DNA of 36,087 bases from positions 1 to 36,087 of the forward strand of contig DATCDL010000362.1 in NCBI GenBank assembly GCA_036510715.1, in the 5' to 3' direction. Below are positions 1,781 through 26,722 of this stretch, in pieces (position 1 is the stretch's first letter; every line of letters starts with the position of its first letter). The notes beneath the pieces were generated by a model, which worked only from the letters and a program-made list of their open reading frames with translations, was not told the DNA's origin and did no database searches. A program made the translations under genes and the position numbers. The DNA comes from Acidobacteriaceae bacterium. GTDB taxonomy: Bacteria > Acidobacteriota > Terriglobia > Terriglobales > Acidobacteriaceae.

Positions 1781-2029
1781 GTCACGTATTCGGTCGACCT
1801 CAGTTGGACCGCACCCGTGAACTCGCCCGTACTGGTGATAGGCTACAACATCTATCGGATGATAAGTGGTGGGACTCTTGCGTTGCTGAACTCCTCGACG
1901 GATTCGGCGACCGACTATGTGGATAGCACAGTCGCGAATGGTACTACCTACAACTACGTAGTGAAAAGCGTCGATTCGGGCGGGGGAGAGAGCGTTGCGT
2001 CAAACGAGATCACAGTGGTCATTCCGTAA
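2..2029 (+). CDS. Large repetitive surface/secreted protein (5'-truncated) with tandem Ig-like choice-of-anchor-D/ASH-type domains and a C-terminal FN3-like domain
   Basis: The frame is open from the window edge. The Thr/Ser/Gly/Ala-rich unit PQLAVSTTSLNFGS...LTLTSTGTSAVTV...FDPT...LTISSN...VALSGTG recurs. The C-terminus VDLSWTAP...GYNIYR...YVDSTV.NGTTYNYVVKSVD...ES.ASN is a typical FN3 pattern. Confidence 0.85.
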   Translation, partial: FTLVGGALPATLSPNQTLTLQVQFDPTTAAALTGSLTISSNSTTGSTAQVALSGTGTAAARPQLAVSTTSLNFGSVTVNTAKTQTLTLTSTGTSAVTVNSATITGAGFTLVGGALPATLSPNQTLTLQVQFDPTMAAALTGSLTISSNSTTGGTAQVVLSGTGTAAASPQLAVSTTSLNFGSQTVNTAKTQTLTLTSTGTSAVTVNSATITGAGFTLVGGALPATLSPNQTLTLQVQFDPTTAAALTGSLTISSNSTTGGTAQVALSGTGTAAASPQLAVSATSLNFGSDTVNTGKTLTLTLTSTGTLAVTVNSGAITGSGFTITGGTLPATLAPNQTLTLQVQFKPPTTGALIGQLAISSNSTTGSTAQVALSGTGTAAASPQLAVSTTSLNFGSQTVNTAKTQTLTLTSTGTSAVTVNSAAITGAGFTIVAASFPVTLTPGQSLTLQIQFDPATAAALTGTLTISSNSTTGSTATVALSGTGAASTDPQLAVSTTTLNFGSQTVNTAKTLTLTLTSTGTSAVTVNSAAITGAGFTLVGGTLPATLSPNQTLTLQVQFDPTTAAALTGTLTISSNSTTGSTATVALSGTGTAVTYSVDLSWTAPVNSPVLVIGYNIYRMISGGTLALLNSSTDSATDYVDSTVANGTTYNYVVKSVDSGGGESVASNEITVVIP

Positions 2030-2468
2030 CTTCTGAAGCAATCTTGCGCCCGTGATCGGCTAGGACTGGCCGTCTCCAAACCATTGCAGCCTCCAGGGTT
2101 ACAACCTCCTGTCGAATCACGAAGAATGCCATCGCTGGTCCGGGTACTCTCGCCGAAAATGATGATCCGGCAGGTAACCAGAGCCTCGGTAGACCTGACC
2201 GCAGCCTGATCCAACTTAAGCCTATTTTCGACGGGTAGCCGACGGCCGATCCTCCTCCGCTCGTCCATCGCCGTGGCTCCACGGCACATCCCAAACTTCT
2301 CTACCTGAACGGCTCCTTTATGGCTCGGCAATCGGTTTGAAACCTTTGCTGGCCTGCTCGGCGTGGCGATTGAGTTGGGCGCAGCCATGTTCGTCAAAAC
2401 GGCAACTGAATCCTCCCCATCAGGCCTCATAGGATCCTCCAGAAATACTAAGTACTTAGCAAAAGGTA

Positions 2469-2496
2469 TGCAAGTCACTGTTACGTATGTATGCAA
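2469..2496 (+). promoter_or_regulatory. Putative upstream activator (enhancer) site, copy 1
   Basis: TGCAAGT-cac-TGTTAC-gta-TGTATGCAA matches 10603-10628 (TGCAAGT-tct-TGTTAC-t-TGTATGCAA). Both start 143 bp upstream of the GG of a -24/-12 motif. Confidence 0.55.
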
Positions 2497-2610
2497 TCCG
2501 CTGCCATTTTTGGAGCGAGAACGTACGACCAAAGTAATCACGGCTTGCAAATTTCCAAAGAAATGGTCAATAAGCCATACTAGCGGGACTTTTTGTTGAT
2601 TGCACCCAAT

Positions 2611-2626
2611 AGGCCCTTGTCGTGCA
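2611..2626 (+). promoter_or_regulatory. Putative sigma-54 (-24/-12) promoter of operon 1
   Basis: AGGC-CCTTGTC-GTGCA has GG-N10-GC spacing. It is a weaker match to TGGCAC-N5-TTGCW but is positionally equivalent to the better copy at 10745. Confidence 0.5.
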
Positions 2627-2663
2627 GCACATTAGGCAGGCAGATCCCAGAGTCGTTCGAAGA

Positions 2664-2711
2664 CTGAGTCGCCGAGAAAAAAGCGAGGGCTGTAGCCCAC
2701 AGGGCGAAGCT
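2664..2711 (+). promoter_or_regulatory. Conserved leader element with ops-like hairpin, copy 1 (candidate UpxY loading/pause site)
   Basis: 44/48 identical to 10797-10844, with the last 33 nt identical (AAAAGCGAGGGCTGTAGCCCACAGGGCGAAGCT). The core GGCTGTAG differs by one base from ops GGCGGTAG. It lies in the 5' UTR of the antiterminator gene. Confidence 0.75.
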
Positions 2712-2769
2712 GTGCCTTTCTATGGGTTTGTCGGAGATGTCGCCCTGTAATAAGGAGAGGTGAAGCAAA

Positions 2770-3396
2770 ATGCTGACTTCGCAGAGTATTGACGCCGGAA
2801 CGCACGATTCCTCAGACTGGTGGGCGCTCTACACTCGCCATCAGCACGAAAAGACGGTGGCGACGATGCTGTCGGCAAAGGGCTTCGAGGTGTTTCTGCC
2901 ACTCTACGAGTCAACGCGGCGCTGGAAAGACAGAAGTAAACTGATTACGCTTCCGCTGTTCCCCTGCTATGTATTTCTCCGGGGAGGGCTCGATCGCCGG
3001 CTGCAGGTCGTGACGACCCCAGGAGTTCACATGATCCTGCTCCGCGGCGAATGCGTCGCGGTCATCCCGGAAGCTGAGATTCAGGCAATTCGAAGGGCAG
3101 TTGAAGGGCCCTTCCGCATAGAACCACATCCCTTCCTGAAGTGTGGCGAGCGGGTTCGCGTCACTCGAGGCCCCCTCGAGGGCGTCGAAGGGATTCTGGT
3201 TCGCAAGAAAAATCTGTATCGCCTGGTCCTTTCTGTGGACATGATGGCGAAGTCCGTTGCGATGGAAATTGATGCCACCGATGTGGAACCTGTGACAGCG
3301 CAGGGCTTCGCAGACGCGTTCCCGCCCGTTCAAGCCACAGGAGCGGGAAGGTTTGGTGAAACGGTACTTCATAGCGGCCAGCAAATAGCTAACTAA
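2770..3396 (+). CDS. UpxY/RfaH-like NusG-paralog transcription antiterminator
   Basis: The NGN domain is WWALYTRHQHEK..FLPLY...RRWKDR....PLFPCYVF and the KOW domain is GERVRVTRGPLEGVEGILV. RBS AAGGAGAGG at 2752-2760. It is the first gene of a polysaccharide operon. Confidence 0.92.
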   Translation: MLTSQSIDAGTHDSSDWWALYTRHQHEKTVATMLSAKGFEVFLPLYESTRRWKDRSKLITLPLFPCYVFLRGGLDRRLQVVTTPGVHMILLRGECVAVIPEAEIQAIRRAVEGPFRIEPHPFLKCGERVRVTRGPLEGVEGILVRKKNLYRLVLSVDMMAKSVAMEIDATDVEPVTAQGFADAFPPVQATGAGRFGETVLHSGQQIAN

Positions 3397-3419
3397 CGTT
3401 CGATACGAGCCGATCAGGT

Positions 3420-4208
3420 TTGAATGAACCCGGCCAGAAAATTGCATTACTGTCGCAGACCAGGGTATCCAGGATGCACCCTCACCAATTCACATCTCGC
3501 ATCGTGGCATCCTGTTCTGACTCGCTCAGAACTTCGACAGGATTTGTTTTGAAAGGTAACGCAACTCGCCTAATCAAATCAGGACTCCTCTTGACTGTTC
3601 TTTCCGGTTCTCTGCTGGGACAAGTGGCTACCCACAGTAAGGCTACTCGCGGATTCCCGGTAGCTACGATGGCGGCCTCGGCCGCACAGCCACTCGCACA
3701 ATCGGGCAACAAGCCACATGACGATAGCTTCGTCATTGGTAATGATGACGTCCTGGCGATCAATGTCTGGAAGGAATCTGACATCTCTCGGTCGATTCAG
3801 GTGCGATCGGATGGGAAAATTTCGTTGCCCTTGGTAGGAGAGGTTCAGGCAGCCGGTCGAACCCCCTTGCAACTCGAGCAGGATATTGCTGCGAAACTCC
3901 GAAACTACATCACCAACCCAGTAGTTACGATCATGGTCGAGCAGATTAACAGCGAGAAATTCAACATCCTTGGACAGGTCGTAAAGCCGGGATCATACTC
4001 ACTTACGCTGGCGCCAACGGTTGTGGATGCAATTGCGATTGCCGGTGGTCCCCGAGATTTCGCCAAGCAAAAAAGTATTTACATCCTGCGACAGAATGTT
4101 GGCGGCGGTGAGTTCCGGATTGTCTTCAATTACAAGAACTTCATTAAAGGAAAGAATTCACAGCAGAACGTCCAGCTTAGGCCGCACGACACAGTCGTCG
4201 TACCTTGA
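3420..4208 (+). CDS. Polysaccharide export (OPX/Wza-family) protein, short form with Poly_export and one SLBB domain; start codon uncertain
   Basis: PES motif FVIGNDDVLAINVW...VRSDGKISLPLVGEVQAAGRT; SLBB ILGQVVKPGSY...DAIAIAGG. It ends at LRPHDTVVVP with no C-terminal amphipathic helix. Confidence 0.9.
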   Translation: MNEPGQKIALLSQTRVSRMHPHQFTSRIVASCSDSLRTSTGFVLKGNATRLIKSGLLLTVLSGSLLGQVATHSKATRGFPVATMAASAAQPLAQSGNKPHDDSFVIGNDDVLAINVWKESDISRSIQVRSDGKISLPLVGEVQAAGRTPLQLEQDIAAKLRNYITNPVVTIMVEQINSEKFNILGQVVKPGSYSLTLAPTVVDAIAIAGGPRDFAKQKSIYILRQNVGGGEFRIVFNYKNFIKGKNSQQNVQLRPHDTVVVP

Positions 4209-5548
4209 AGGCTTTCATGCTTAAATGTGTATGTCTTTTTCTCGCAATACTCGTGGCGACCCCGGTCTGGTCTCAGGCCACACCGGATGAGGAAACCCGA
4301 ATGCTGATACCCCCGCCTGTGAGCGCTGAAGCCTATCCGACAACGGTCGGAGATGAAGAACGGTCAAATTATCTGGCCACCGGTTTGATCCTCAATACCG
4401 CATACGATGACAATATCCTCGCAGGCGGAAGTACCAATCCGATTCATGACGTTACTTACTCAGTTTGGCCCACGTTTACGCTGAACCTGACAACCCCACG
4501 GCAAAAGCGGACGCTGACGTATAGTCCAGGCTTCACCTTCTATCAGCACACCACCGCTCTCAATGCAGCAGATCAGAATGCAGCACTGAATTTTCAATAC
4601 CGTCTGAGCCCATATACGACCTTAAACATAAACGACTCCTTTCAGAAGATCTCGAATGTGTTCAATCAGCCCAATCCTCTTTCTGGGGTCGCGATATCGG
4701 GTTCAGCGCAGGCTCAACCAACAGGGGTTGTCGCTCCTTTCGCTGAACAACTCAGTAATACCGCGAATATGGGACTAAGTTATCAATTCAGTATGAATAG
4801 CATGATGGGCTTTGGAGGGATTATCACTCAAAGTCATTACCCCAATCCAGCCGAAGCCTCAGGTCTCTACGACTCGAACTCGCGCGGAGGTTCGGTTTTC
4901 TACAGCCAACGTTTGTCCAGTACCCAGTATGTTGGTTTGACCTATCAGTATTTAGAAAGTCAGAGTAAGCCTGTAAACGCCCAGGCCAATCCAGCGAATT
5001 CACAGACTGAGGTGCAGACCCATACCCTGTTGCCTTTTTACACGGTCTATTTGAATCCAAGGCTTTCCTTCTCTTTCTCAGGTGGTCCGCAACACGTTGA
5101 CGCCACCCAATCTCTCTCGGCACCGTTCCGCTCGTGGATGCCCTCTGCGATGGCAAGCATCGGATGGCAAAGGAGCCATACAAATCTTGTGGCCAGTTAC
5201 TCGCGAACGGTTACTGGGAGCACGGGCCTGTCTGGGGCGTTCACTTCGAGTAGCGCAAATGCCTCTGTACGCTGGCAGATGACACGCGCCTGGATCATAG
5301 GGTCTGCGGCGAGTTATGTGATCAACAAGAACGTTATCCATTTGTTCTCTCCGTATCTTCCGGGGGGACACACTGTTTCAGGAGCCGTCTCTGCTGAGCA
5401 CTCGATAAGCGATCACTTCAAGGCAGAACTTGGCTACGTCCGACTGCACCAGAGTTATAGCCGCATTGCGGTGATTTCCAACTCTCCTGATAGCAATCGC
5501 GAGTTCATCTCCGTCTCCTACCAGTTCACAAGGCCATTAGGAAGATGA
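4205..5548 (+). CDS. Putative outer-membrane beta-barrel protein, probable partner of the short OPX protein
   Basis: Signal peptide (LFLAILVATPVWS-Q). Ser/Thr/Tyr-rich alternating strands, early YDDNI motif and terminal strand FISVSYQF. Overlaps the OPX gene and the co-polymerase gene. Confidence 0.7.
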   Translation: MKAFMLKCVCLFLAILVATPVWSQATPDEETRMLIPPPVSAEAYPTTVGDEERSNYLATGLILNTAYDDNILAGGSTNPIHDVTYSVWPTFTLNLTTPRQKRTLTYSPGFTFYQHTTALNAADQNAALNFQYRLSPYTTLNINDSFQKISNVFNQPNPLSGVAISGSAQAQPTGVVAPFAEQLSNTANMGLSYQFSMNSMMGFGGIITQSHYPNPAEASGLYDSNSRGGSVFYSQRLSSTQYVGLTYQYLESQSKPVNAQANPANSQTEVQTHTLLPFYTVYLNPRLSFSFSGGPQHVDATQSLSAPFRSWMPSAMASIGWQRSHTNLVASYSRTVTGSTGLSGAFTSSSANASVRWQMTRAWIIGSAASYVINKNVIHLFSPYLPGGHTVSGAVSAEHSISDHFKAELGYVRLHQSYSRIAVISNSPDSNREFISVSYQFTRPLGR

Positions 5549-7128
5549 TCATGGAAGAAACCTACGAGGAACAGAGCTCCGAAGGACTCGATATCCAGCG
5601 TTACCTACAGTTAGTCAAGCGCCACCATATCCACTTCCTGATACCGCTATTTCTGGGATGGCTTATGGTATGGGGTGCAAGCTGGGTTTTGCCGGCACGC
5701 TATAAGTCAAACACGCTGATCCTAGTGGAGCAGCCCACGATGCCGAAAAATTATGTCGAGTCAAATGTCAACGACGATTTGCAGAATCGACTTCAAAGTA
5801 TTACGCAACAGATTCTGAGCCGCACCCGCCTTCTTCTGATCATTGATAAGTTGCATCTCTACGGCGACAGTCGACGTCACCTCACTCCAGATGAAAAAGT
5901 CGAACTCATGCGCAAAGACATAGACATCGTGCTCGTGCGTGACTCTCACGATGACCAGATCACAGCATTCAAAATCAGCTATTCGACTCGTGATTCTCAT
6001 GTTGCTCAGCAGGTAACTCGCGAATTGTCGAGCCTGTTTATCACGGACAATTTGCAAGTACGCCAGCAACAGTCCGAAGCCACAACAAAGTTTCTCGAGA
6101 GCCAGTTGGAAGATGCGCGAGCGAGCCTTGCCGACCAGGAAGCGAAGGTTCGAGATTTCAAAGGGAAGCATGAAGGTGAATTGCCTTCTCAGGAAGCGAG
6201 CAACCTCCAAATTCTCAGCGGCCTTCAGGCGCAGCTACAGAACGAACAGGATACTCTCAACACCGCAAAACAGCAGCGGGTCTATCTCCAGACACTCATA
6301 GAGCAATACCGAACTCTCCATTCGAACCCTGGGAGTGCCGACAGTACGCCGACTGGCGATCAGAACATCGATCGACTAAAGTCAAAGCTCGCAGACCTTA
6401 GGTCTCGCTACACCGACAATTACCCGGAAGTCGAGAACCTGAAAGACGAGATAACCAAGGCCGAAAGGACGAGAGACACCATCAATGCTGAGCCGAAGAC
6501 ACTACGCAATGGTGTGAGACAGTTCGACGCAACAGATGCTTCAAAGAATTCGGCGGCCTTGCAACTGCAAGGCCAGTTACAAGCCAACCAGGTAGAGATT
6601 GCGAATCGCGGGCAAGCAATTACTGAGCTAAAAGCAAGAGTCAACGGCTATCAGGATCGCTTGAACACTGAACCGGCGAGCGAGGAGCAGTTAGCAGATC
6701 TGACCCGTGGCTATGATCAATCCAAGGCTAATTACGACGATCTGTTAAAGAAGGAAAACGAATCGGAGATGGCGACTAGCATGGAACAAATGCAGCAAGG
6801 TGAGCGGTTCAGCATCCTTGATCCACCTAGCTTACCGTTGAAGCCGGAATTTCCTAACCGTCTTAAATTCTGTGGCGCCGGGTTGGGTCTCGGCCTCGTT
6901 TTGGGCCTCATTGTGGCGGGTGGATTTGAATATATGGATGACCGTTTGCATAGTGAGAAGGAAATAAAGCTCCTGCTTCCAGTAGCGATCCTATCGGAAA
7001 TTCCTGAGATTGTGAGTCCATTGGATGAACGAATCAGTAAGAAAAGAATGGTCTTGGGATGGACCATGGCTGCATTAGCCTTCGCTGCCATTCTGGCTGG
7101 TTCTGCGGTCAGCTATCTACACGATTAG
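5545..7128 (+). CDS. Polysaccharide co-polymerase / chain-length determinant (GumC/Wzc N-terminal part)
   Basis: N-terminal TM, then LPARYKS..LILVE and ILSRTRL, a long coiled coil, the FSILDPPSLPLKPEFPNR motif and C-terminal TMs. Confidence 0.9.
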   Translation: MIMEETYEEQSSEGLDIQRYLQLVKRHHIHFLIPLFLGWLMVWGASWVLPARYKSNTLILVEQPTMPKNYVESNVNDDLQNRLQSITQQILSRTRLLLIIDKLHLYGDSRRHLTPDEKVELMRKDIDIVLVRDSHDDQITAFKISYSTRDSHVAQQVTRELSSLFITDNLQVRQQQSEATTKFLESQLEDARASLADQEAKVRDFKGKHEGELPSQEASNLQILSGLQAQLQNEQDTLNTAKQQRVYLQTLIEQYRTLHSNPGSADSTPTGDQNIDRLKSKLADLRSRYTDNYPEVENLKDEITKAERTRDTINAEPKTLRNGVRQFDATDASKNSAALQLQGQLQANQVEIANRGQAITELKARVNGYQDRLNTEPASEEQLADLTRGYDQSKANYDDLLKKENESEMATSMEQMQQGERFSILDPPSLPLKPEFPNRLKFCGAGLGLGLVLGLIVAGGFEYMDDRLHSEKEIKLLLPVAILSEIPEIVSPLDERISKKRMVLGWTMAALAFAAILAGSAVSYLHD

Positions 7129-7140
7129 GTTCAGCTCCCT

Positions 7141-8130
7141 ATGTACAAAGCATTCTTTAATCTAACGCGCAATCCATTCGAGCTCACACCTAATCCCACT
7201 TGCTTTGTCCCGACCAAGCGGCACAGCGAAGCGCTGACGGCGCTTTACTATGGCATACGGCAACACAAGGGTTTTGTTGTGTTGACTGGAGAGGTGGGCA
7301 CCGGAAAGACCCTTCTGCTCCGGTGTTTGCTCGCGCTCTTAAAGGAGAGCAAAGATATTGCCTACGCATATCTATTTAATGGGCGGCTTTCTCCTACTGA
7401 GTTCCTACAGTACATTGTCTCCGACTTCAGGCTTCCGGTTACCGGTAAAAACAAAAGCGATCTATTGTTTGATCTCGGTCAGTTCTTAGGCTCGCGAGGC
7501 TCACAGAAAATGACTACCGTGCTCATAGTAGATGAGGCACACCATTTGTCCGAGGACATTCTTGAGGAACTCCGTCTTCTATCGAACCTTGAAACAGACG
7601 ATGACAAATTGTTGCAGATTGTATTGGTGGGACAGCCCGAACTTGACGAGAAGCTGGATTCTGTCGGACTTAGACAACTCAAACAAAGAATCGCGGTTCG
7701 CACGCAGCTTGGTTCGCTGGATGCTGAGGAGACGAAGCGATACATCGAGCAGCGATTGCAGATTGCTGGAGCAGACTTATCCGCTGATCCACTATTCTCT
7801 GCTCAAACCATTACGGCAGTGCATCGCCATTCGAAAGGCCTGCCGCGCCTGATTAACACAATTTGCGACAATGCCCTGATGACCGCCTATGCGAGAGGAC
7901 TGCAAAGCGTCACTCCGGAAGTCATAGGAGATGTGGCAAAAGAGTTTCGCCTCGATATGGTTGGCCCGCCTGACGCTGCAAGAAGCAAGCTTTCCAGTGA
8001 GATGGATGTCCAACGGATCACAAACCTGCTGCTTGATTTGTACGCAGCCATGCGACGACCAATCGCAAGCGATACAGACTTGGGCGCATCTGCAGCCATC
8101 GAAGTGAGCAAACATGAGCCATATATTTGA
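7141..8130 (+). CDS. ExeA-family AAA ATPase (similar to the ATPase associated with EPS/PEP-CTERM loci)
   Basis: MYKAFFNLTRNPF start, Walker A GEVGTGKT, Walker B LIVDEAH, LVGQPEL, LRQLKQRI and GLPRLINTICDNAL. Confidence 0.92.
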   Translation: MYKAFFNLTRNPFELTPNPTCFVPTKRHSEALTALYYGIRQHKGFVVLTGEVGTGKTLLLRCLLALLKESKDIAYAYLFNGRLSPTEFLQYIVSDFRLPVTGKNKSDLLFDLGQFLGSRGSQKMTTVLIVDEAHHLSEDILEELRLLSNLETDDDKLLQIVLVGQPELDEKLDSVGLRQLKQRIAVRTQLGSLDAEETKRYIEQRLQIAGADLSADPLFSAQTITAVHRHSKGLPRLINTICDNALMTAYARGLQSVTPEVIGDVAKEFRLDMVGPPDAARSKLSSEMDVQRITNLLLDLYAAMRRPIASDTDLGASAAIEVSKHEPYI

Positions 8131-9112
8131 CGCACTACAAAGATCGGAAACTGAAAGCTCTGGTATAGACTTGTCGGCGCTGCCGGGAGTGACTGTGCTG
8201 CTGCAGCGCGTAGAACGTCAAGCAGCTTCGAAATGGGAAGCGGCGGCTCTGTCTAAGGAGTCTGGGGCGGCGGAAACCACAGAGACCGAGAAGCCATTCA
8301 GCTCAATAGCGGTGCAGCCAGTGGCGAAGGAACCTGAACATTCAGCCAGCGAGCTTTCTCAGCCCGATGAACAGTCCGCTCCGTTCGGCCAATTCGGGTC
8401 CCTGCAAGTCTCGCTCGATTCTCAGAGCCGGCTACTCAGTCTCACGGACAGCGATAGCCCAACAGCGGAAGCCTTCCGACTTCTAGGGGTGCGATTGCGA
8501 CATCTCCGTCGGCAGCGGTTGCTTAAGACGGTGCTGATAACGAGCACAATTCCGCAAGAAGGCAAGAGTCTAGTCGCTGCGAACCTGGCCTGCACTCTTG
8601 CCCTAAGAACTCATGAAAAAATCCTGCTGCTAGAAGGAGACCTGCGACGTCCGTCTCTATCGCAGAAGTTCGGGCTCGGGAGGAATCCTGGTCTCTGTGA
8701 ATGTCTGCAGGGCGCGGCCAGTCTAAGGGCTAATATCTACCAACTCGAAGGCCTGAACCTCTGGATTCTTCCGGCGGGAAGCACTCCGAGCAATGCGCAG
8801 GAACTCCTGCAATCAGGAAGACTGTCTGCGCTGATGGATGAGTTGGCCACATGGTTTGATTGGATCGTCATCGATTCTCCTCCCGTGTTGCCGTTGGCTG
8901 ACACAAGCGTCTGGATGCGGTTGGCCGATGGAGTCCTTCTCGTTACGAGGCAGGGAACTACGGAGAAGCGGCAGTTACAGAGGGGACTCGAAGCACTCGA
9001 CCATAAGAAACTGATCGGTGCGTTAGTGAATGGCTCCACGAATGCAGCTGACAGCAGCTACTACTACAGCCAAGCGCCTGCCCCGCAATCGGATGGGGTT
9101 TTAGCGAAATGA
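8114..9112 (+). CDS. CpsD/CapB-family bacterial tyrosine kinase
   Basis: AEAFRLL, Walker A TSTIPQEGKS, A' EGDLRRP, Walker B IVIDSPP and a C-terminal Tyr cluster SSYYYS. Confidence 0.92.
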   Translation: MSHIFDALQRSETESSGIDLSALPGVTVLLQRVERQAASKWEAAALSKESGAAETTETEKPFSSIAVQPVAKEPEHSASELSQPDEQSAPFGQFGSLQVSLDSQSRLLSLTDSDSPTAEAFRLLGVRLRHLRRQRLLKTVLITSTIPQEGKSLVAANLACTLALRTHEKILLLEGDLRRPSLSQKFGLGRNPGLCECLQGAASLRANIYQLEGLNLWILPAGSTPSNAQELLQSGRLSALMDELATWFDWIVIDSPPVLPLADTSVWMRLADGVLLVTRQGTTEKRQLQRGLEALDHKKLIGALVNGSTNAADSSYYYSQAPAPQSDGVLAK

Positions 9113-9304
9113 CTGACTTTGATTGGGAGCCTGTCTCTTATCGTCTAGTCTCCGAACTTGCGATTTGTAGATCCCTACCTACGCCACCCATCGCAATCAG
9201 ATGTTTAATGTTGCCTCAGAAATGATACGGACACAAGCAGGCCAGGAGCTGTTGTCATTAGTGGCCAGCGAATAGTGAAGTGACCGTCTCGAGAGGAGTT
9301 ATTT

Positions 9305-10459
9305 GTGACTATGTTACGTATAGATAAAGCTTCAAATTCAGCTGATCCTTTACTCGCGCAGTTAGGTGCTCAAGAGCGCGACATACTGAACCAAGAAACC
9401 TTTAAGCGCATGATTGCTGTCGAGCGCAAAAGGACGGAGCGTTCAAGAGAACCCTTCTTGCTTATGCTGCTGGAGCCAGGAAATCGTCAGGTTTCGGAAA
9501 AGAACGGGAAGGCTCTCGACAAGATGCTGTCTGTGCTGCTGCTATCCATCAGGGAGACAGACGTAATCGGTTGGTACAAAGACCAGGCAGTTGTTGGTGT
9601 GATATTTACAGGACTCGCGAGTGATGACAAGAACTCGATCCTCAGCGCTATCCTCAGCAGGGTCAGCAACGCGCTAAGAGATCGGTTGACACCGGACCAA
9701 TTCAATCAAGTCAGCATCTCCTTTCACTTCTTTCCCGATGACTGGGATCAAGATACCCCCGGGCGTCCAAGCAATTTGACTCTATATCCAGATCTCGTGA
9801 GCTCCGATAGGGGCAAATATTCCCTGTTGCGAATTAAGCAAGCGATAGATATTCTTGGCAGTTCGCTCATGCTGATCCTTTGCAGCCCTCTCTTTCTCGT
9901 GGTAGCACTAGCGATCAAAGCGTCATCCAAAGGCTCAGTGCTCTTTAGACAACAGCGGGTCGGACAGTACGGTCAAAGCTTTACATTTCTCAAATTTCGT
10001 TCGATGCATGTCGACAATGATGAAACCGTTCACAAAGAGTATGCAACGAAATTGATCGCTGGTGAGGCGGACGGTAGACACTCGGATAGGAATGGTGATC
10101 GCGTATTCAAGCTCACGAATGATACGAGGGTTACCCGAGTGGGGAAGTTTTTGCGACGAACCAGTCTGGATGAACTGCCGCAGCTAGTGAATGTTCTAAA
10201 AGGAGATATGTCACTCGTTGGCCCTCGGCCGGCGCTTCCGTACGAGGTGGCCGCTTACCAAACGTGGCACCGCCGTCGGTTATTACAGGTCAAGCCAGGC
10301 ATAACTGGCTTGTGGCAAGTGACTGGCCGAAGCAGGGTAAAGTTTGACGAAATGGTTCGGCTGGATCTGCAATATGCAACGTCGTGGTCTCCATTGCTGG
10401 ATATTAAGATCCTCATGCATACTCCTCGCGCGGTGATCCTAGGCGCAGGCGCCTATTGA
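9305..10459 (+). CDS. Priming phosphoglycosyltransferase (bacterial sugar transferase) with an N-terminal degenerate GGDEF-like domain
   Basis: C-terminal motifs [35 protein letters not shown] and [10 protein letters not shown]. The N-terminus follows the GGDEF pattern. RBS GAGGAG at 9293-9298. Confidence 0.9.
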
Positions 10460-10602
10460 ACTCACCGGGTGGACCTGCATTTTGGTCAATGCCAAATCCG
10501 TTCCCCGCTATGCTGGACGAGTCCCTCCCCTGGTAAGCGGTCATTCAAAGAGAGTTCTCAAACTGATGATGCGTGTGCGGACCGCAACATAGGCTTCAGA
10601 TG

Positions 10603-10628
10603 TGCAAGTTCTTGTTACTTGTATGCAA
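10603..10628 (+). promoter_or_regulatory. Putative upstream activator (enhancer) site, copy 2
   Basis: TGCAAGT-N7-ACTTGTA is an imperfect inverted repeat and matches 2469-2496 at offset 8134. Confidence 0.55.
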
Positions 10629-10744
10629 CACCTCCAATTCCAAAGGTGGGCTAGGGCAGGAATGTGCGGTGTCGAAAACCCGAGTTATCTGAGAGATGAG
10701 CGATAAATAGCCACTGCTGCCGGCGTTCGAAGGACCGTGCAGAA

Positions 10745-10760
10745 TGGCCATTGCCTTGCA
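10745..10760 (+). promoter_or_regulatory. Putative sigma-54 (-24/-12) promoter of operon 2
   Basis: TGGC-CATTGCC-TTGCA matches TGGC-N7-TTGCW with exact GG-N10-GC spacing, inside a 540-bp intergenic gap. Confidence 0.65.
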
Positions 10761-10796
10761 ACATCATGGTCTTTAGGTCCACGAGTTGACGCGAGT

Positions 10797-10844
10797 CTGA
10801 GCCGCAGAGTGAAAAGCGAGGGCTGTAGCCCACAGGGCGAAGCT
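10797..10844 (+). promoter_or_regulatory. Conserved leader element with ops-like hairpin, copy 2
   Basis: 44/48 identical to 2664-2711. It starts 38 nt after the -12 GC (39 nt in copy 1) and precedes a same-strand gene run of more than 25 kb. Confidence 0.75.
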
Positions 10845-10998
10845 ACGTCTTGTCGGATTATTATGGCAACGGCTGTTGAGCTAAAGAGCAAGGTGAGCAC
10901 GAAGCAGACGAAGCGGAAGTTCCTATTGCTGTATTGGACTCTTCTTTCTCCGACACGCATTCCCTTCATCCGCAATTGTGGAGATTGGTGAAAATATA

Positions 10999-11997
10999 AT
11001 GAATTTTGGTGTCATAGGCTATGGCTACTGGGGGCCAAATGTTGTGAGAAACCTCGCCAGTCTGGAGGACTCCCAGGTGCTCACAATAGCGGAGATGAGT
11101 CCCGTTGCGCGTGAGCGCGCACAGAAGGCTTATCCGGGAATCCATGTAACGCCAGATGCCTCAGACGTATTCTTGTCAACGGAAATAGACGCCGTCGCTG
11201 TCGTCACTCCGGTCTGGACGCACTATGAGCTGGCAAAAGCTGCATTGCAGAACGGCAAGCATGTGTTCGTTGAAAAGCCATTCACCAGCAATGTTGCCCA
11301 GGCTGAGGAATTGATCGACCTAGCCCAGAAGAAGAATCTCAAGATCATGGTGGATCACACGTTCTTATTTACAGGGGCCGTAAAGAAAATATGGAAATTG
11401 CTGGAGGAAGGGACTCTTGGCAAGCTCTATTACTACGATGCTACGCGCGTCAACCTAGGCCTTTTCCAGCACGACATCAATGTCCTATGGGATCTTGCAC
11501 CGCATGATCTCTCCATCATGGACTACCTCATCAAAGGAAGTCCCGAGGCGATCGTTGCGACCGGCCAAAAGCATCTGAATGGCCACGAAGATGTAGCTTA
11601 TATGACACTATATTTCCCGGAGAAGGTCATAGCTCATATCAATGTCAACTGGCTCTCTCCGGTCAAGGTCAGGACTACTCTCATCGGCGGAGAGAGACGA
11701 ATGCTGGTCTGGAATGATTTAGAAGCGGACGAAAAAGTAAAGGTGTATGACAGGGGAGTGGACATCTCCAGCCGCGAGGGCGTCTACGAGTTGTTAGTTA
11801 ACTACCGGTCTGGCGATATGTGGGCTCCACAACTGGAACAGACCGAGGCCCTGCGACAGGAACTCGCCTACTTCGTGGATTGCATCTCAAGTGGCGAGGA
11901 GCCGCTCAACAACGGATGCGCTGGCCTGAGGGTGATTAAGATGCTGGAAGCAGCCAGCGAGTCAATAAACAAGCGAGGAGCTCTGGTCTATCTATGA
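10999..11997 (+). CDS. Gfo/Idh/MocA oxidoreductase (WbpB/WlbA-like nucleotide-sugar 3-dehydrogenase)
   Basis: GVIGYGYWG, HVFVEKP and WDLAPHD motifs. ATG 10999 is preferred over GTG 10978. It is adjacent to an acetyltransferase and an aminotransferase. Confidence 0.88.
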   Translation: MNFGVIGYGYWGPNVVRNLASLEDSQVLTIAEMSPVARERAQKAYPGIHVTPDASDVFLSTEIDAVAVVTPVWTHYELAKAALQNGKHVFVEKPFTSNVAQAEELIDLAQKKNLKIMVDHTFLFTGAVKKIWKLLEEGTLGKLYYYDATRVNLGLFQHDINVLWDLAPHDLSIMDYLIKGSPEAIVATGQKHLNGHEDVAYMTLYFPEKVIAHINVNWLSPVKVRTTLIGGERRMLVWNDLEADEKVKVYDRGVDISSREGVYELLVNYRSGDMWAPQLEQTEALRQELAYFVDCISSGEEPLNNGCAGLRVIKMLEAASESINKRGALVYL

Positions 11998-18461: not shown

Positions 18462-18560
18462 AGGCGGGTTCTCCATGAGCTTCTCGAATCGAAAGGATTA
18501 GTTGACAGAGAGTCTGCTGACGCAGCGCGCTCGGTTGACATCATAATCTCTCTTCACATA

Positions 18561-19316
18561 ATGAACGTGGCAGGATTAGGTCCCATGACATCGAAAACCG
18601 AACAGGTAAGATCGTTGTTTGAGATTCCTCAAAAGTATCTCGACCCGAGACAGTACGACATTAGAATTCGGGTTGAGACTGTGCAGCAGTTCACTGATGC
18701 GTCGAAGTTCGAACGTGTATTGGATATTGGTTGTGGGGATGGCTCGATCTCTTTGCCCCTGCTGCCGTGCTGTAGCAAGCTCACGCTGCTGGACCTTTCC
18801 ACAAACATGCTCGATCTTGCATCTAAGCGTATCCCATCTGGTCGCGTGAACGATGTCGAACTGATAAGCGGGGATTTCATGGGTGCCAACTTTGAGCCTC
18901 AATCATTTGATCTCATTCTCTGCATTGGCGTTCTTGCACATGTGGATTCTCCGGCCGCCGTCATTGAGAGGGTGGCCCGGCTAGCAAAGCCAGGTGCTTG
19001 GGTGATTCTAGAGTTCACCGATAGCTTCCATTTGTGGGGTGTACCTGTCGTTCTGTATCAAAAGTCATTGGCGCTGCTTCGACCTGAACCGTACAAGCTA
19101 AATCGTCTTAAGAAACGTCAGGTGCTAGGCTTGTGTAGCTCTAATGGCCTCGGGGTATCAGCGGTCTACCGATATGGGTTACCGCCTCTCGGGTCTCACA
19201 AGCTTCTCAATCAGAGAAAGATGTACAGGTTGACTCGGTATTTGTTCGGCACTTCTGCCCGAAGCCAAAATGGCTGGATGGGGAACCAATTCATTTATCA
19301 GTTCAAGAAGTCGTAG
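18561..19316 (+). CDS. Class I SAM-dependent methyltransferase
   Basis: VLDIGCGDG, LDLSTNML, FDLILCIGVLAHV and LAKPGA. Confidence 0.9.
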   Translation: MNVAGLGPMTSKTEQVRSLFEIPQKYLDPRQYDIRIRVETVQQFTDASKFERVLDIGCGDGSISLPLLPCCSKLTLLDLSTNMLDLASKRIPSGRVNDVELISGDFMGANFEPQSFDLILCIGVLAHVDSPAAVIERVARLAKPGAWVILEFTDSFHLWGVPVVLYQKSLALLRPEPYKLNRLKKRQVLGLCSSNGLGVSAVYRYGLPPLGSHKLLNQRKMYRLTRYLFGTSARSQNGWMGNQFIYQFKKS

Positions 19317-25342: not shown

Positions 25343-26722
25343 ATGGAACCCGATCACTACCGCTTCGGAGGTGGCTCAGCTACCACCGTGCTTCATCCCA
25401 TAGTGGCGGTGGCGATGCTGCTTGCGATCATCCTTATTCTGCGCCTGCCACTCAAGAGGGTATTAGCACCACTGCTGCTTGCGATCTTCCTTATTCCAAA
25501 AGGGCAAGTTATAGTTCTGGCCGGCATACACTTAAATGCTTATCGAGTCATCCTGCTGGCGGGACTGGCTCGATGGGCAATCTCGAGACGATCGTCTCCA
25601 CTGGCTGGCGGGTTCAATTCCATTGACTGGTTGTTCACTTTGGCGGCCGTCTCTTTCTTCATCATTTTCTCACTCCAGTACATGGCGACACAGGCACTGA
25701 TTAAGGCTCTCGGGGATCTACTGGATGCGATGGCCGGCTATTTTGTCCTACGATTCCTGATCCGCGACCGGGAGAGTATCCGAGAAACAGTCAGAGTCTT
25801 TGCGCTCATTGCCATTATCGTAGGAATCTGCATGCTCAATGAGCAACGCACGGGGGTGAATGTCTTCGGGCTGCTTGGCGGCACTCTAAGCATCTCCGAA
25901 ACGCGGAACGGAGCCATTCGGTCGATGGGCCCGTTTTTACATTCGATACCCGCCGGAGCGTTTGGGGCAACACTTGTCCCATTGCTCATCTGGCTTTGGT
26001 CGGATGGGAAATTCCGAATATTAGCTGCACTCGGATTACTTGGGGCAACGGCCATGGCCGTCACTTGCCACTCCTCTACCGTGCTTGGTTGCTATGTTGC
26101 GGGTATTTTTGGCCTTTGCATGTGGCCTCTCCGTAACCAGATGCGCGTAATCCGATATGGACTTTTAATAGTGGTAATAGGCCTGCACTTGATCATGAAA
26201 GGCCCCGTCTGGTCGCTCCTGGAGCACATAGATTTGACAGGTTCATCGGAGAGTTTTCATCGTTATCAGCTCGTCGATACCTTCATTAGACATTTTAATG
26301 AGTGGTGGTTGTTGGGCACTCAGAACAATGGTTCCTGGGGTTGGGAAATGGCTGATACTTCCAATGAGTATGTGACATATGGCGTGGAGGGTGGGCTGCT
26401 AACTCTTGTTCTATTCATAGCTCTCATTTCGAAGTGCCTTGGAAAGCTTGGGACTAAACGAAAAATCGTCGCGGGCCACCGCGGTGAGGAATGGCTCTTC
26501 TGGTGCCTTGGGACTGCTATGTTTGCGCACTTGGTGGTCTTCATTGGAATTGATTATTTTGACCAAATGCTATTTGCTTGGTTTGCATTGTTGGCCATAA
26601 TCGCCACGGGCGTCTCTATACCCACAAAGGGGGGGAGACCAAGACTGATTACCCGAGGAGACCGTGACAGCCAGTTTGCCAACCACGAGTTCGACGAAGC
26701 ACTCCAAGTGTCCGGGTCTTGA
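25343..26722 (+). CDS. Wzy polymerase / O-antigen-ligase-like polytopic membrane protein
   Basis: About 11-12 hydrophobic segments; periplasmic motifs RNGAIRSMGPFLHSI, SSESFHRYQL, WWLLG and NEYV.YGVEGGL. ATG 25343 is the preferred start. Confidence 0.75.
   Translation: MEPDHYRFGGGSATTVLHPIVAVAMLLAIILILRLPLKRVLAPLLLAIFLIPKGQVIVLAGIHLNAYRVILLAGLARWAISRRSSPLAGGFNSIDWLFTLAAVSFFIIFSLQYMATQALIKALGDLLDAMAGYFVLRFLIRDRESIRETVRVFALIAIIVGICMLNEQRTGVNVFGLLGGTLSISETRNGAIRSMGPFLHSIPAGAFGATLVPLLIWLWSDGKFRILAALGLLGATAMAVTCHSSTVLGCYVAGIFGLCMWPLRNQMRVIRYGLLIVVIGLHLIMKGPVWSLLEHIDLTGSSESFHRYQLVDTFIRHFNEWWLLGTQNNGSWGWEMADTSNEYVTYGVEGGLLTLVLFIALISKCLGKLGTKRKIVAGHRGEEWLFWCLGTAMFAHLVVFIGIDYFDQMLFAWFALLAIIATGVSIPTKGGRPRLITRGDRDSQFANHEFDEALQVSGS

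Follow-up and report, generated by a model that had tools for sequence, protein, structure and literature searches.

A twice-present control block with a predicted sigma-54 promoter and ops-like leader in a long acidobacterial polysaccharide cluster

The window analyzed here is the whole 36,087-nucleotide (nt) stretch of contig DATCDL010000362.1 (contig C362 of genome G000 in our numbering), from the Acidobacteriaceae assembly GCA_036510715.1, which comprises 4.3 Mb and is 70% complete. It likely represents one long polysaccharide (slime) cluster, in which a control block of about 250 bases is present twice. The first gene of the cluster encodes a NusG paralog of the UpxY family. The reading that we consider probable is that each block unites a sigma-54 promoter, fired by one enhancer-binding protein (EBP), with a pause at which this UpxY-type protein would be loaded on the polymerase, and that copy 2 would restart transcription and reload the protein inside the cluster.

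Three motifs, a box (starting at 2469 and 10603 by direct check of the sequence), a GG-N10-GC promoter and a leader, repeat at offsets of +8134, +8134 and +8133, exactly as the original prediction had located them. The leader extends over 2664–2711 and 10797–10844 of the forward strand, with an identical core of 33 nt (2679–2711 and 10812–10844). A fourth element, which is A-rich and lies about 52 bp before the GG, was recovered by aligning related loci. The parts of the two modules are as follows.

2469–2482, forward strand: module 1, enhancer site 1, a degenerate TGCA-N6-TGCA palindrome (related-loci alignment; AtoC site layout).
2492–2505, forward strand: module 1, enhancer site 2, 23 bp past site 1 and 120 bp before the GG (related-loci alignment).
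2560–2574, forward strand: module 1, A-rich element about 52 bp before the GG, a weak candidate for an integration host factor (IHF) or bending site (17 bits in related loci).
2612–2625, forward strand: module 1, -24/-12 (GG-N10-GC) sigma-54-type promoter, predicted start near 2636–2637 (motif; rpoN present).
2679–2714, forward strand: module 1, predicted ops-like pause and loading site (A-run, hairpin, TGT, GCG-AGC stem; opsX comparison), with a candidate RNA hairpin at 2687–2698, invariant TGT at 2691–2693, GCG-AGC stem at 2704–2710 and predicted pause 3′ end at 2713.
10603–10616, forward strand: module 2, enhancer site 1 (related-loci alignment).
10624–10637, forward strand: module 2, enhancer site 2, 21 bp past site 1, right half decayed (related-loci alignment).
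10693–10707, forward strand: module 2, A-rich element (related-loci alignment).
10746–10759, forward strand: module 2, -24/-12 promoter, predicted start near 10770–10771 (motif).
10812–10847, forward strand: module 2, predicted ops-like pause and loading site, predicted pause 3′ end at 10846 (leader alignment).

Ungapped comparison of the copies gave 18/31 identical positions for the box (58%), 12/16 for the promoter (75%) and 47/54 for the leader (87%), scores that were reached in 0 of 500 shuffles. The two upstream spacers are at chance identity (11/47, p=0.54; 10/35, p=0.31), in agreement with the earlier claim that diverged spacers between conserved motifs indicate selection. A weak residual likeness of the promoter-to-leader spacer (12/34, p=0.016) and of the stretch after the leader (25/76, p=0.008) is expected of an old duplication. 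For the A-rich element, comparison of the window copies by themselves does not reach significance (5/17, p=0.23). The copies are only about 50–60% alike; copy 2 is nonetheless whole in five loci. A 30-nt part of the leader core, searched for in the 4.3-Mb assembly with as many as 7 mismatches allowed, gave these two copies and no third. Judged from these comparisons, the motifs are under selection within an old duplication.

Orthologous loci were collected from 401 genomes of the family (18 with a match at E ≤1e-60) and from metagenomes (best 80 of 421). The leader pattern TGT-N5-ACAG(G/A)GCG(A/G)AGC stands before 82 of the 85 distinct UpxY-type orthologues having 250 nt upstream, a count reduced in weight by the fact that the pattern and the distance windows were drawn from the same loci tested, and by kinship, so that the cases are not independent. 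Searched in the 401 genomes, the pattern matched 35 of them, against 9 hits for the reversed-pattern control, and a NusG paralog lies within 300 nt in 20/30 of the loci returned. The same leader was also found in two other Acidobacteriaceae records.

The bases outside the search pattern, by contrast with the count above, give independent evidence. Numbered from the predicted pause, the 86 non-redundant leaders have a pyrimidine at -1 (the third base after the pattern) in all 86 cases, and at +1 a G in 68 and an A in the other 18. A pyrimidine at -1 and a G at +1, with G at -11 and -10, make up the elemental-pause form. In the same numbering, the GCG-AGC stem occupies -10 to -4, the fixed TGT -23 to -21 and the A-run -35 to -32. 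An RNA stem of at least four pairs ending at -16 is found in 64/86 leaders versus 50.7 in 1000 swaps (standard deviation 2.9, maximum 59), the stem being short and the count inflated by kin; both window copies can form a four-pair stem at this position. A TGT/ACA pause hairpin ending at -13 was dropped, with 3–4 pairs only and no covariation. Since this hairpin is short and does not covary, the TGT is taken as a probable element of sequence-specific recognition, and the -16 stem appears better supported than the -13 hairpin. Together, these comparisons support the prediction that the leader is an ops-like loading site for the UpxY-type protein.

A different explanation would be that the leader is a structured RNA or attenuator, not a loading site at the DNA level, or that copy 2 is a decaying by-product of duplication. 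Leader 1 can form a five-pair hairpin before a short U-rich run, and copy 2 is absent from three of the eight members of its clade. The core bases are fixed and not covarying, however; the element is tied to nusG-paralog genes, as seen in the leader-pattern search; and all four elements are kept in five loci, against spacers at chance identity. A known RNA family for the leader was rejected: an Rfam scan of 2000–11100 gave just a weak, irrelevant snoRNA match at 4283, and no family, JUMPstart included, matched the leaders at E up to 5. We regard this explanation as the least probable of those considered.

Some leaders were found in other settings. Distant paralogs from a second family of the order (L003–L006, 42–46% identity) share the GGGCG(A/G)AGC end, and their upstream stem, GTCAC...GTGAC, is longer and different. 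At L165 and L171, good-looking leaders have no NusG paralog found downstream, and L165 has a kinase-like gene 733 nt on; it is possible that these leaders are targets served in trans. The genome G000 carries four NusG paralogs besides nusG, and the GGCGAAGC element is upstream of 4/4 of them. Two further UpxY-type genes, on contigs C488 (near 3035) and C146 (near 13771), are both above the NF033644 cut-off and have variant leaders: that of C146 retains the TGT at -23 with the ACA altered, and that of C488 retains the GGCGAAGC part alone. These variants may give the paralogs their specificity.

The closest known system is that of Bacteroides. According to the portion of Saba et al. (2024, PMC11685472) on which this comparison draws, the opsX sites carry GCG-AGC stems and hairpins whose ends fall at -9 to -16, and UpxY contacts them near positions -21 to -24 and also near -31 to -34. 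As in Bacteroides, a NusG paralog passing the UpxY hidden Markov model (HMM) cut-off is the first gene of a polysaccharide operon; the leader pause has consensus ends, a GCG-AGC non-template stem and possibly a short RNA hairpin, here predicted from sequence; and upstream duplex bases are conserved at the positions that UpxY protects. Unlike the invertible promoters of Bacteroides, the promoter here is of sigma-54/EBP type. The second gene is Wza-like, with zero UpxZ matches among the 28 window proteins, and the locus is not classed as a Bacteroides Y-Z system. In addition, the site is nearly invariant across genera, whereas opsX is locus-specific, and a second full site occurs inside the cluster.

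With E. coli RfaH/ops (JUMPstart, Rfam RF01707) the locus shares the non-template GCG-AGC stem at a pause and the service to long polysaccharide operons; it differs in the missing Rfam match, in a gene placed inside its own target and in a conserved site of about 35 bp versus 12. JUMPstart is listed for gamma-Proteobacteria (PMC2864571). The first-gene protein scored 119.2 bits with NF033644 (UpxY; cut-off 100) and 72.9 bits with the RfaH model TIGR01955, below its cut-off of 144.5, and it failed the cut-off of the LoaP model. RfaH is marked by an autoinhibited C-terminal domain that switches fold; in the AlphaFold structure of the present protein this part is a beta KOW domain with pLDDT confidence of about 62–77, a single model that may miss a second fold.

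Upstream of the leader, each block carries GG and GC 10 bases apart, which is the -24/-12 consensus of sigma-54 promoters, and the genome carries rpoN, also present in 5/5 relatives examined. Alignment of the nearest relatives resolved the box into two tandem TGCA-N6-TGCA palindromes, 20–24 bp apart and at about -170 to -130 in most modules, and perfect in other loci; the box as a direct repeat or IHF site was dropped after this alignment. The A-rich element fits just the first half of the IHF consensus, and the IHF-like genes of the genome score below cut-off. An IHF site between enhancer and sigma-54 promoter is common, not universal.

Within 2.1 kb before orthologous nusG-paralog genes, 47 palindromes were counted; 36 of them are followed by GG-N10-GC at the tested distances, whose windows were set after inspecting the gene layouts. 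For the same palindromes, the spacing controls N8, N9, N11 and N12 gave 0, 1, 0 and 0, and the mirror side gave 4. Palindromes are about ten times denser upstream of nusG paralogs than elsewhere (47 in 149 kb versus 20 in 629 kb). Palindrome and promoter were seen together in three gene arrangements. In the first they immediately precede the nusG paralog, in the second an EBP gene stands between them and the paralog, and in the third the gap is 65 bp and the promoter near-canonical. The enhancer-to-promoter distance is 120–145 bp and in some loci changes in steps of about 10 bp.

A four-part model was trained on 21 modules of other organisms, excluding the genome's own copies, one near-identical module, one duplicate and one module of another type. 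On the genome, the window copies scored 57.7 and 54.2 bits, a site on contig C533 scored 31.1 and the next of the 208 candidates -1.2. The C533 site, an independent hit of the model, heads the paralogous polysaccharide cluster of this genome (C533:26362, reverse strand; L148). This cluster has the same gene order, a third enhancer and -24/-12 module before an EBP gene without the GAFTGA motif, an ops-like leader after that EBP gene and no second module at wbaP-gfo. A second promoter type was observed in L032, L033, L075, L080, L084, L099, L105, L106 and L125, with a near-canonical -24/-12 (6/7 positions) about 175 nt before the leader and the palindrome at just 65 bp upstream of that site; in L032 and L033, a further GGCGAAGC precedes the main one by about 60 nt. 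The comparative data support the prediction of GG-N10-GC as a sigma-54 promoter with an EBP enhancer.

It could be argued that the leader is real and the upstream motifs belong to another system, that is, a sigma-70 or extracytoplasmic function (ECF) promoter with a TGCA-binding activator such as the GAFTGA-less EBP of C533, in a VpsR-like manner. The non-canonical -24/-12 flanks carry extra conserved bases, the C533 EBP has the same recognition helix without GAFTGA (kept in 3/15 of its kind), and VpsR is described (PMC6158489) as an EBP homologue without the residues needed for sigma-54 activation. Against this stand the strict N10 spacing (36 versus 0–1), the near-canonical site of the second lineage with the same palindrome, the distance of the enhancer with its 10-bp steps, and the scan for sigma-70-type promoters, which were rejected at the modules after no match was found at either. 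We consider such a system very unlikely, at about the level of the attenuator or by-product explanation.

The enhancer resembles that of E. coli AtoC, whose two TGCA-N6-TGC(A/G) sites at the sigma-54 promoter of atoDAEB lie between -184 and -144 with 21 bp from one to the next (PMC3118216); the site sequence was confirmed on the E. coli K-12 sequence. Palindromes of the same shape and spacing thus stand 140–185 bp before the sigma-54 start of atoDAEB, and the candidate activator here has a recognition helix similar to that of AtoC. The differences are that this EBP fails the AtoC equivalog cut-off (294 bits versus 714) and falls in a separate clade, that the target is polysaccharide synthesis and that the promoter flanks are non-canonical.

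There are eight strong EBP matches in G000, and two EBP types, named after contigs C460 and C533, occur in linkage with these clusters. EBPs of the C460 type carry a receiver-like domain and have GAFTGA in 24/24; those of the C533 type lack a receiver domain and have GAFTGA in the 3/15 cited above. An AtoC-like recognition helix is common to both. A C460-type EBP is upstream of the nusG paralog in 11 of the 30 loci with at least 4 kb upstream, three of the 11 sharing one sequence, and in genome G012 an 80%-identical orthologue of the C460 EBP is on the contig of the cluster, 53 kb downstream. Singling out the activator by likeness of the whole helix-turn-helix (HTH) to AtoC failed. The GAFTGA-intact C460 EBP is likely the activator of both modules and is proposed as the candidate.

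The genes controlled are arranged in three parts.

2770–3396, forward strand: UpxY-family NusG paralog of 208 aa, the first gene of the cluster (Pfam NusG; NF033644; AlphaFold model with NGN and KOW domains).
3420–10459, forward strand: export and priming block, encoding a Wza-like protein, an open reading frame (ORF) without family match, a Wzz-like protein, an AAA ATPase, a tyrosine-kinase-like protein and a WbaP-like sugar transferase (family profile matches).
11009–36087, forward strand: biosynthesis block, encoding a Gfo oxidoreductase, acetyltransferases, a DegT aminotransferase, glycosyltransferases, methyltransferases, a flippase and others (main ORFs on the same strand to the contig end).

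The original prediction placed the two modules at the heads of two exopolysaccharide operons. While its enhancer, sigma-54 promoter and ops-like leader are each backed by the comparative tests, at the level of prediction, this framing needs correcting. Among 38 distinct loci spanning wbaP and gfo (40 rows, two duplicates dropped), 33 run from wbaP to gfo as one unit, with a gap of 67–241 nt and no module; they include the paralogous cluster of this genome. A second module before gfo occurs in only 5/38, all five in one clade of eight loci (support 1.0). No intrinsic terminator was found between the end of wbaP at 10459 and the copy-2 promoter at 10746, in a scan blind to Rho-dependent stops. 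Because of the module-less gaps, the single clade and the lack of a terminator, copy 2 is likely a derived insertion into an ancestral single operon, serving as an internal promoter and reload site and not as the head of a separate operon.

Two separate operons would still result if transcription from copy 1 ended after wbaP, for example by Rho, leaving copy 2 as the sole downstream start. The wbaP-gfo gap of the window, 549 nt long, holds a full promoter module and is followed by at least 25 kb of same-strand biosynthesis genes, and a Rho-dependent stop would be invisible to the scan used. This is opposed by the absence of an intrinsic terminator and by the 33 module-less gaps; moreover, a UpxY-loaded polymerase is expected to resist Rho, as established for RfaH in the portion of PMC7593976 consulted. 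Two operons are therefore unlikely, though less so than the two explanations discussed above.

The history of copy 2 may be less simple than one insertion. The module tree splits the five copy-2 modules into three groups (supports 0.95, 0.94 and 0.93). The side of the insert on which the ancestral spacer falls differs among these loci, although this mapping is weak (z mostly below 3.6). Tree and mapping together hint at more than one insertion. A single origin with later losses may also account for the distribution. In a bolder and rather doubtful view, the block is a portable start-and-load cassette, inserted repeatedly and independently at the same wbaP-gfo junction in one lineage, since one loading event could not carry polymerase through at least 33 kb. 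If true, the cluster would have a feed-forward order, with export machinery and UpxY first and biosynthesis second, and the GAFTGA-less activator paralog, which shares the recognition helix and is headed by the same enhancer, would brake the circuit.

Returning to the reading of two promoters with loading sites in one operon, several observations weigh against it. With 4 and 5 of 7 scored positions, the window promoters are not canonical sigma-54 promoters. They are absent from the 13 canonical-pattern sites of the genome, and on the promoter part alone many unrelated sites score higher than either of them. Copy 2 has a decayed right half in its enhancer site 2. Many orthologous loci have no module in the DNA stretch covered, and two nusG-paralog orthologues, L096 and L128 (68–71% identity), have no leader motif upstream; downstream of L128, the DNA has no match to the cluster genes of the window. 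ViennaRNA with DNA parameters yields no fold of the non-template GCG-AGC stem, which is read from base order; GNA mini-hairpins are specially stable. The lack of a JUMPstart match in Rfam counts here as well. As for the activator, 19/30 long loci have no C460-type gene in the upstream stretch covered, the whole-HTH score versus AtoC is higher for the C189 EBP (74) than for C460 (64), and the C35 and C533 EBPs share the recognition-helix pattern of C460. Finally, the three clade loci without copy 2 mean that it is dispensable.

From the sequence, its conservation, the gene order and the presence of rpoN and EBP genes, we infer the following course. An EBP with an AtoC-like recognition helix, most likely that of C460, would bind the two TGCA-N6-TGCA sites about 170–130 bp before the start, and DNA bending near the A-rich element may help it to reach the sigma-54 polymerase at GG-N10-GC. 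The polymerase would pause about 77 nt past the start at the consensus pause, aided by the short RNA hairpin. Two features would then be read by the UpxY protein: the GCG-AGC stem exposed on the non-template strand, and the duplex farther upstream with its TGT (-23 to -21) and A-run (-35 to -32). The protein would remain on the polymerase, suppressing polarity. In one clade, a duplication probably placed copy 2 in the spacer between wbaP and gfo. There it would supply the biosynthesis block of at least 25 kb with a separate start, driven by the same activator, and with another loading site, which polymerases reading through from copy 1 would cross too. As copy 1 is the only source of UpxY, copy 2 would reach full expression only after copy 1 has fired.

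The original prediction knew of no described circuit joining sigma-54 and a NusG paralog. At the cluster level the pairing has a precedent in the myxovirescin (TA) cluster of Myxococcus xanthus, reported as sigma-54/EBP-controlled (excerpts of PMC6971385 and PMC4902038) and activated by the NusG paralog TaA through a mechanism called unknown in the part of PMC7819879 consulted. As in the reading given here, the long TA cluster combines initiation control of sigma-54 type with a NusG paralog of its own; unlike the present one, it makes a polyketide, and no loading site or duplicated module is described for it in these portions. Activation of matrix polysaccharide by an EBP with sigma-54 and promoters within operons also have parallels, namely the Burkholderia RpoN-BerB switch on exopolysaccharide (PMC5552954) and the internal sigma-54 promoters of long Myxococcus clusters (PMC7910581), both cited from partial text; in neither portion is the promoter coupled to a loading site for a NusG paralog, and the word NusG does not occur in PMC7910581. 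In full-text literature searches, none of the titles and abstracts among the top results described this circuit; the combination of Acidobacteria with a NusG paralog retrieved no paper, and that of RfaH, sigma-54 and antitermination none either, though supplements could list such sites. The term Acidobacter is absent from the main text of PMC7819879, PMC7593976 and PMC11685472. All parts of the module are of known kinds, and for their combination at the cis-element level no precedent was found.

Other features were observed in and around the cluster. Positions 1–2029 are the 3′ part of a gene in which six 321-bp repeats encode domains of Ig-like (ASH/Cep192) type and whose 5′ part is probably on contig C536; similar genes stand before the cluster in many related loci. 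The WbaP-like protein (9305–10459) has a long N-terminal extension carrying an RxxD motif. The Wzz-like, ATPase and kinase genes (5545–9112) gave their top scores on XrtA/PEP-CTERM-associated models, all below cut-off, and in G012 a PEP-CTERM gene is upstream of the cluster (L146:10140–11048). A 24-nt direct repeat (25416–25439 and 25473–25496, 96% identical, 57 nt apart) lies within an ORF without family match. A sigma-70-type match of 11/12 at 18535–18562, just before the methyltransferase gene at 18561, is a possible further internal promoter, total matches being not above shuffles.

For NusG paralogs beyond RfaH and Bacteroides UpxY, target recognition is largely an open question, according to the part of PMC7593976 consulted. 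For this question the locus offers a precise candidate loading site, conserved across genera of an abundant soil phylum and aligned with the mapped opsX contacts. It also names a predicted sigma-54 enhancer, a candidate activator and a predicted three-promoter regulon for acidobacterial slime production. The pairs of clade members with and without copy 2 would represent a natural test of how far a polymerase reaches after a single antiterminator loading event.

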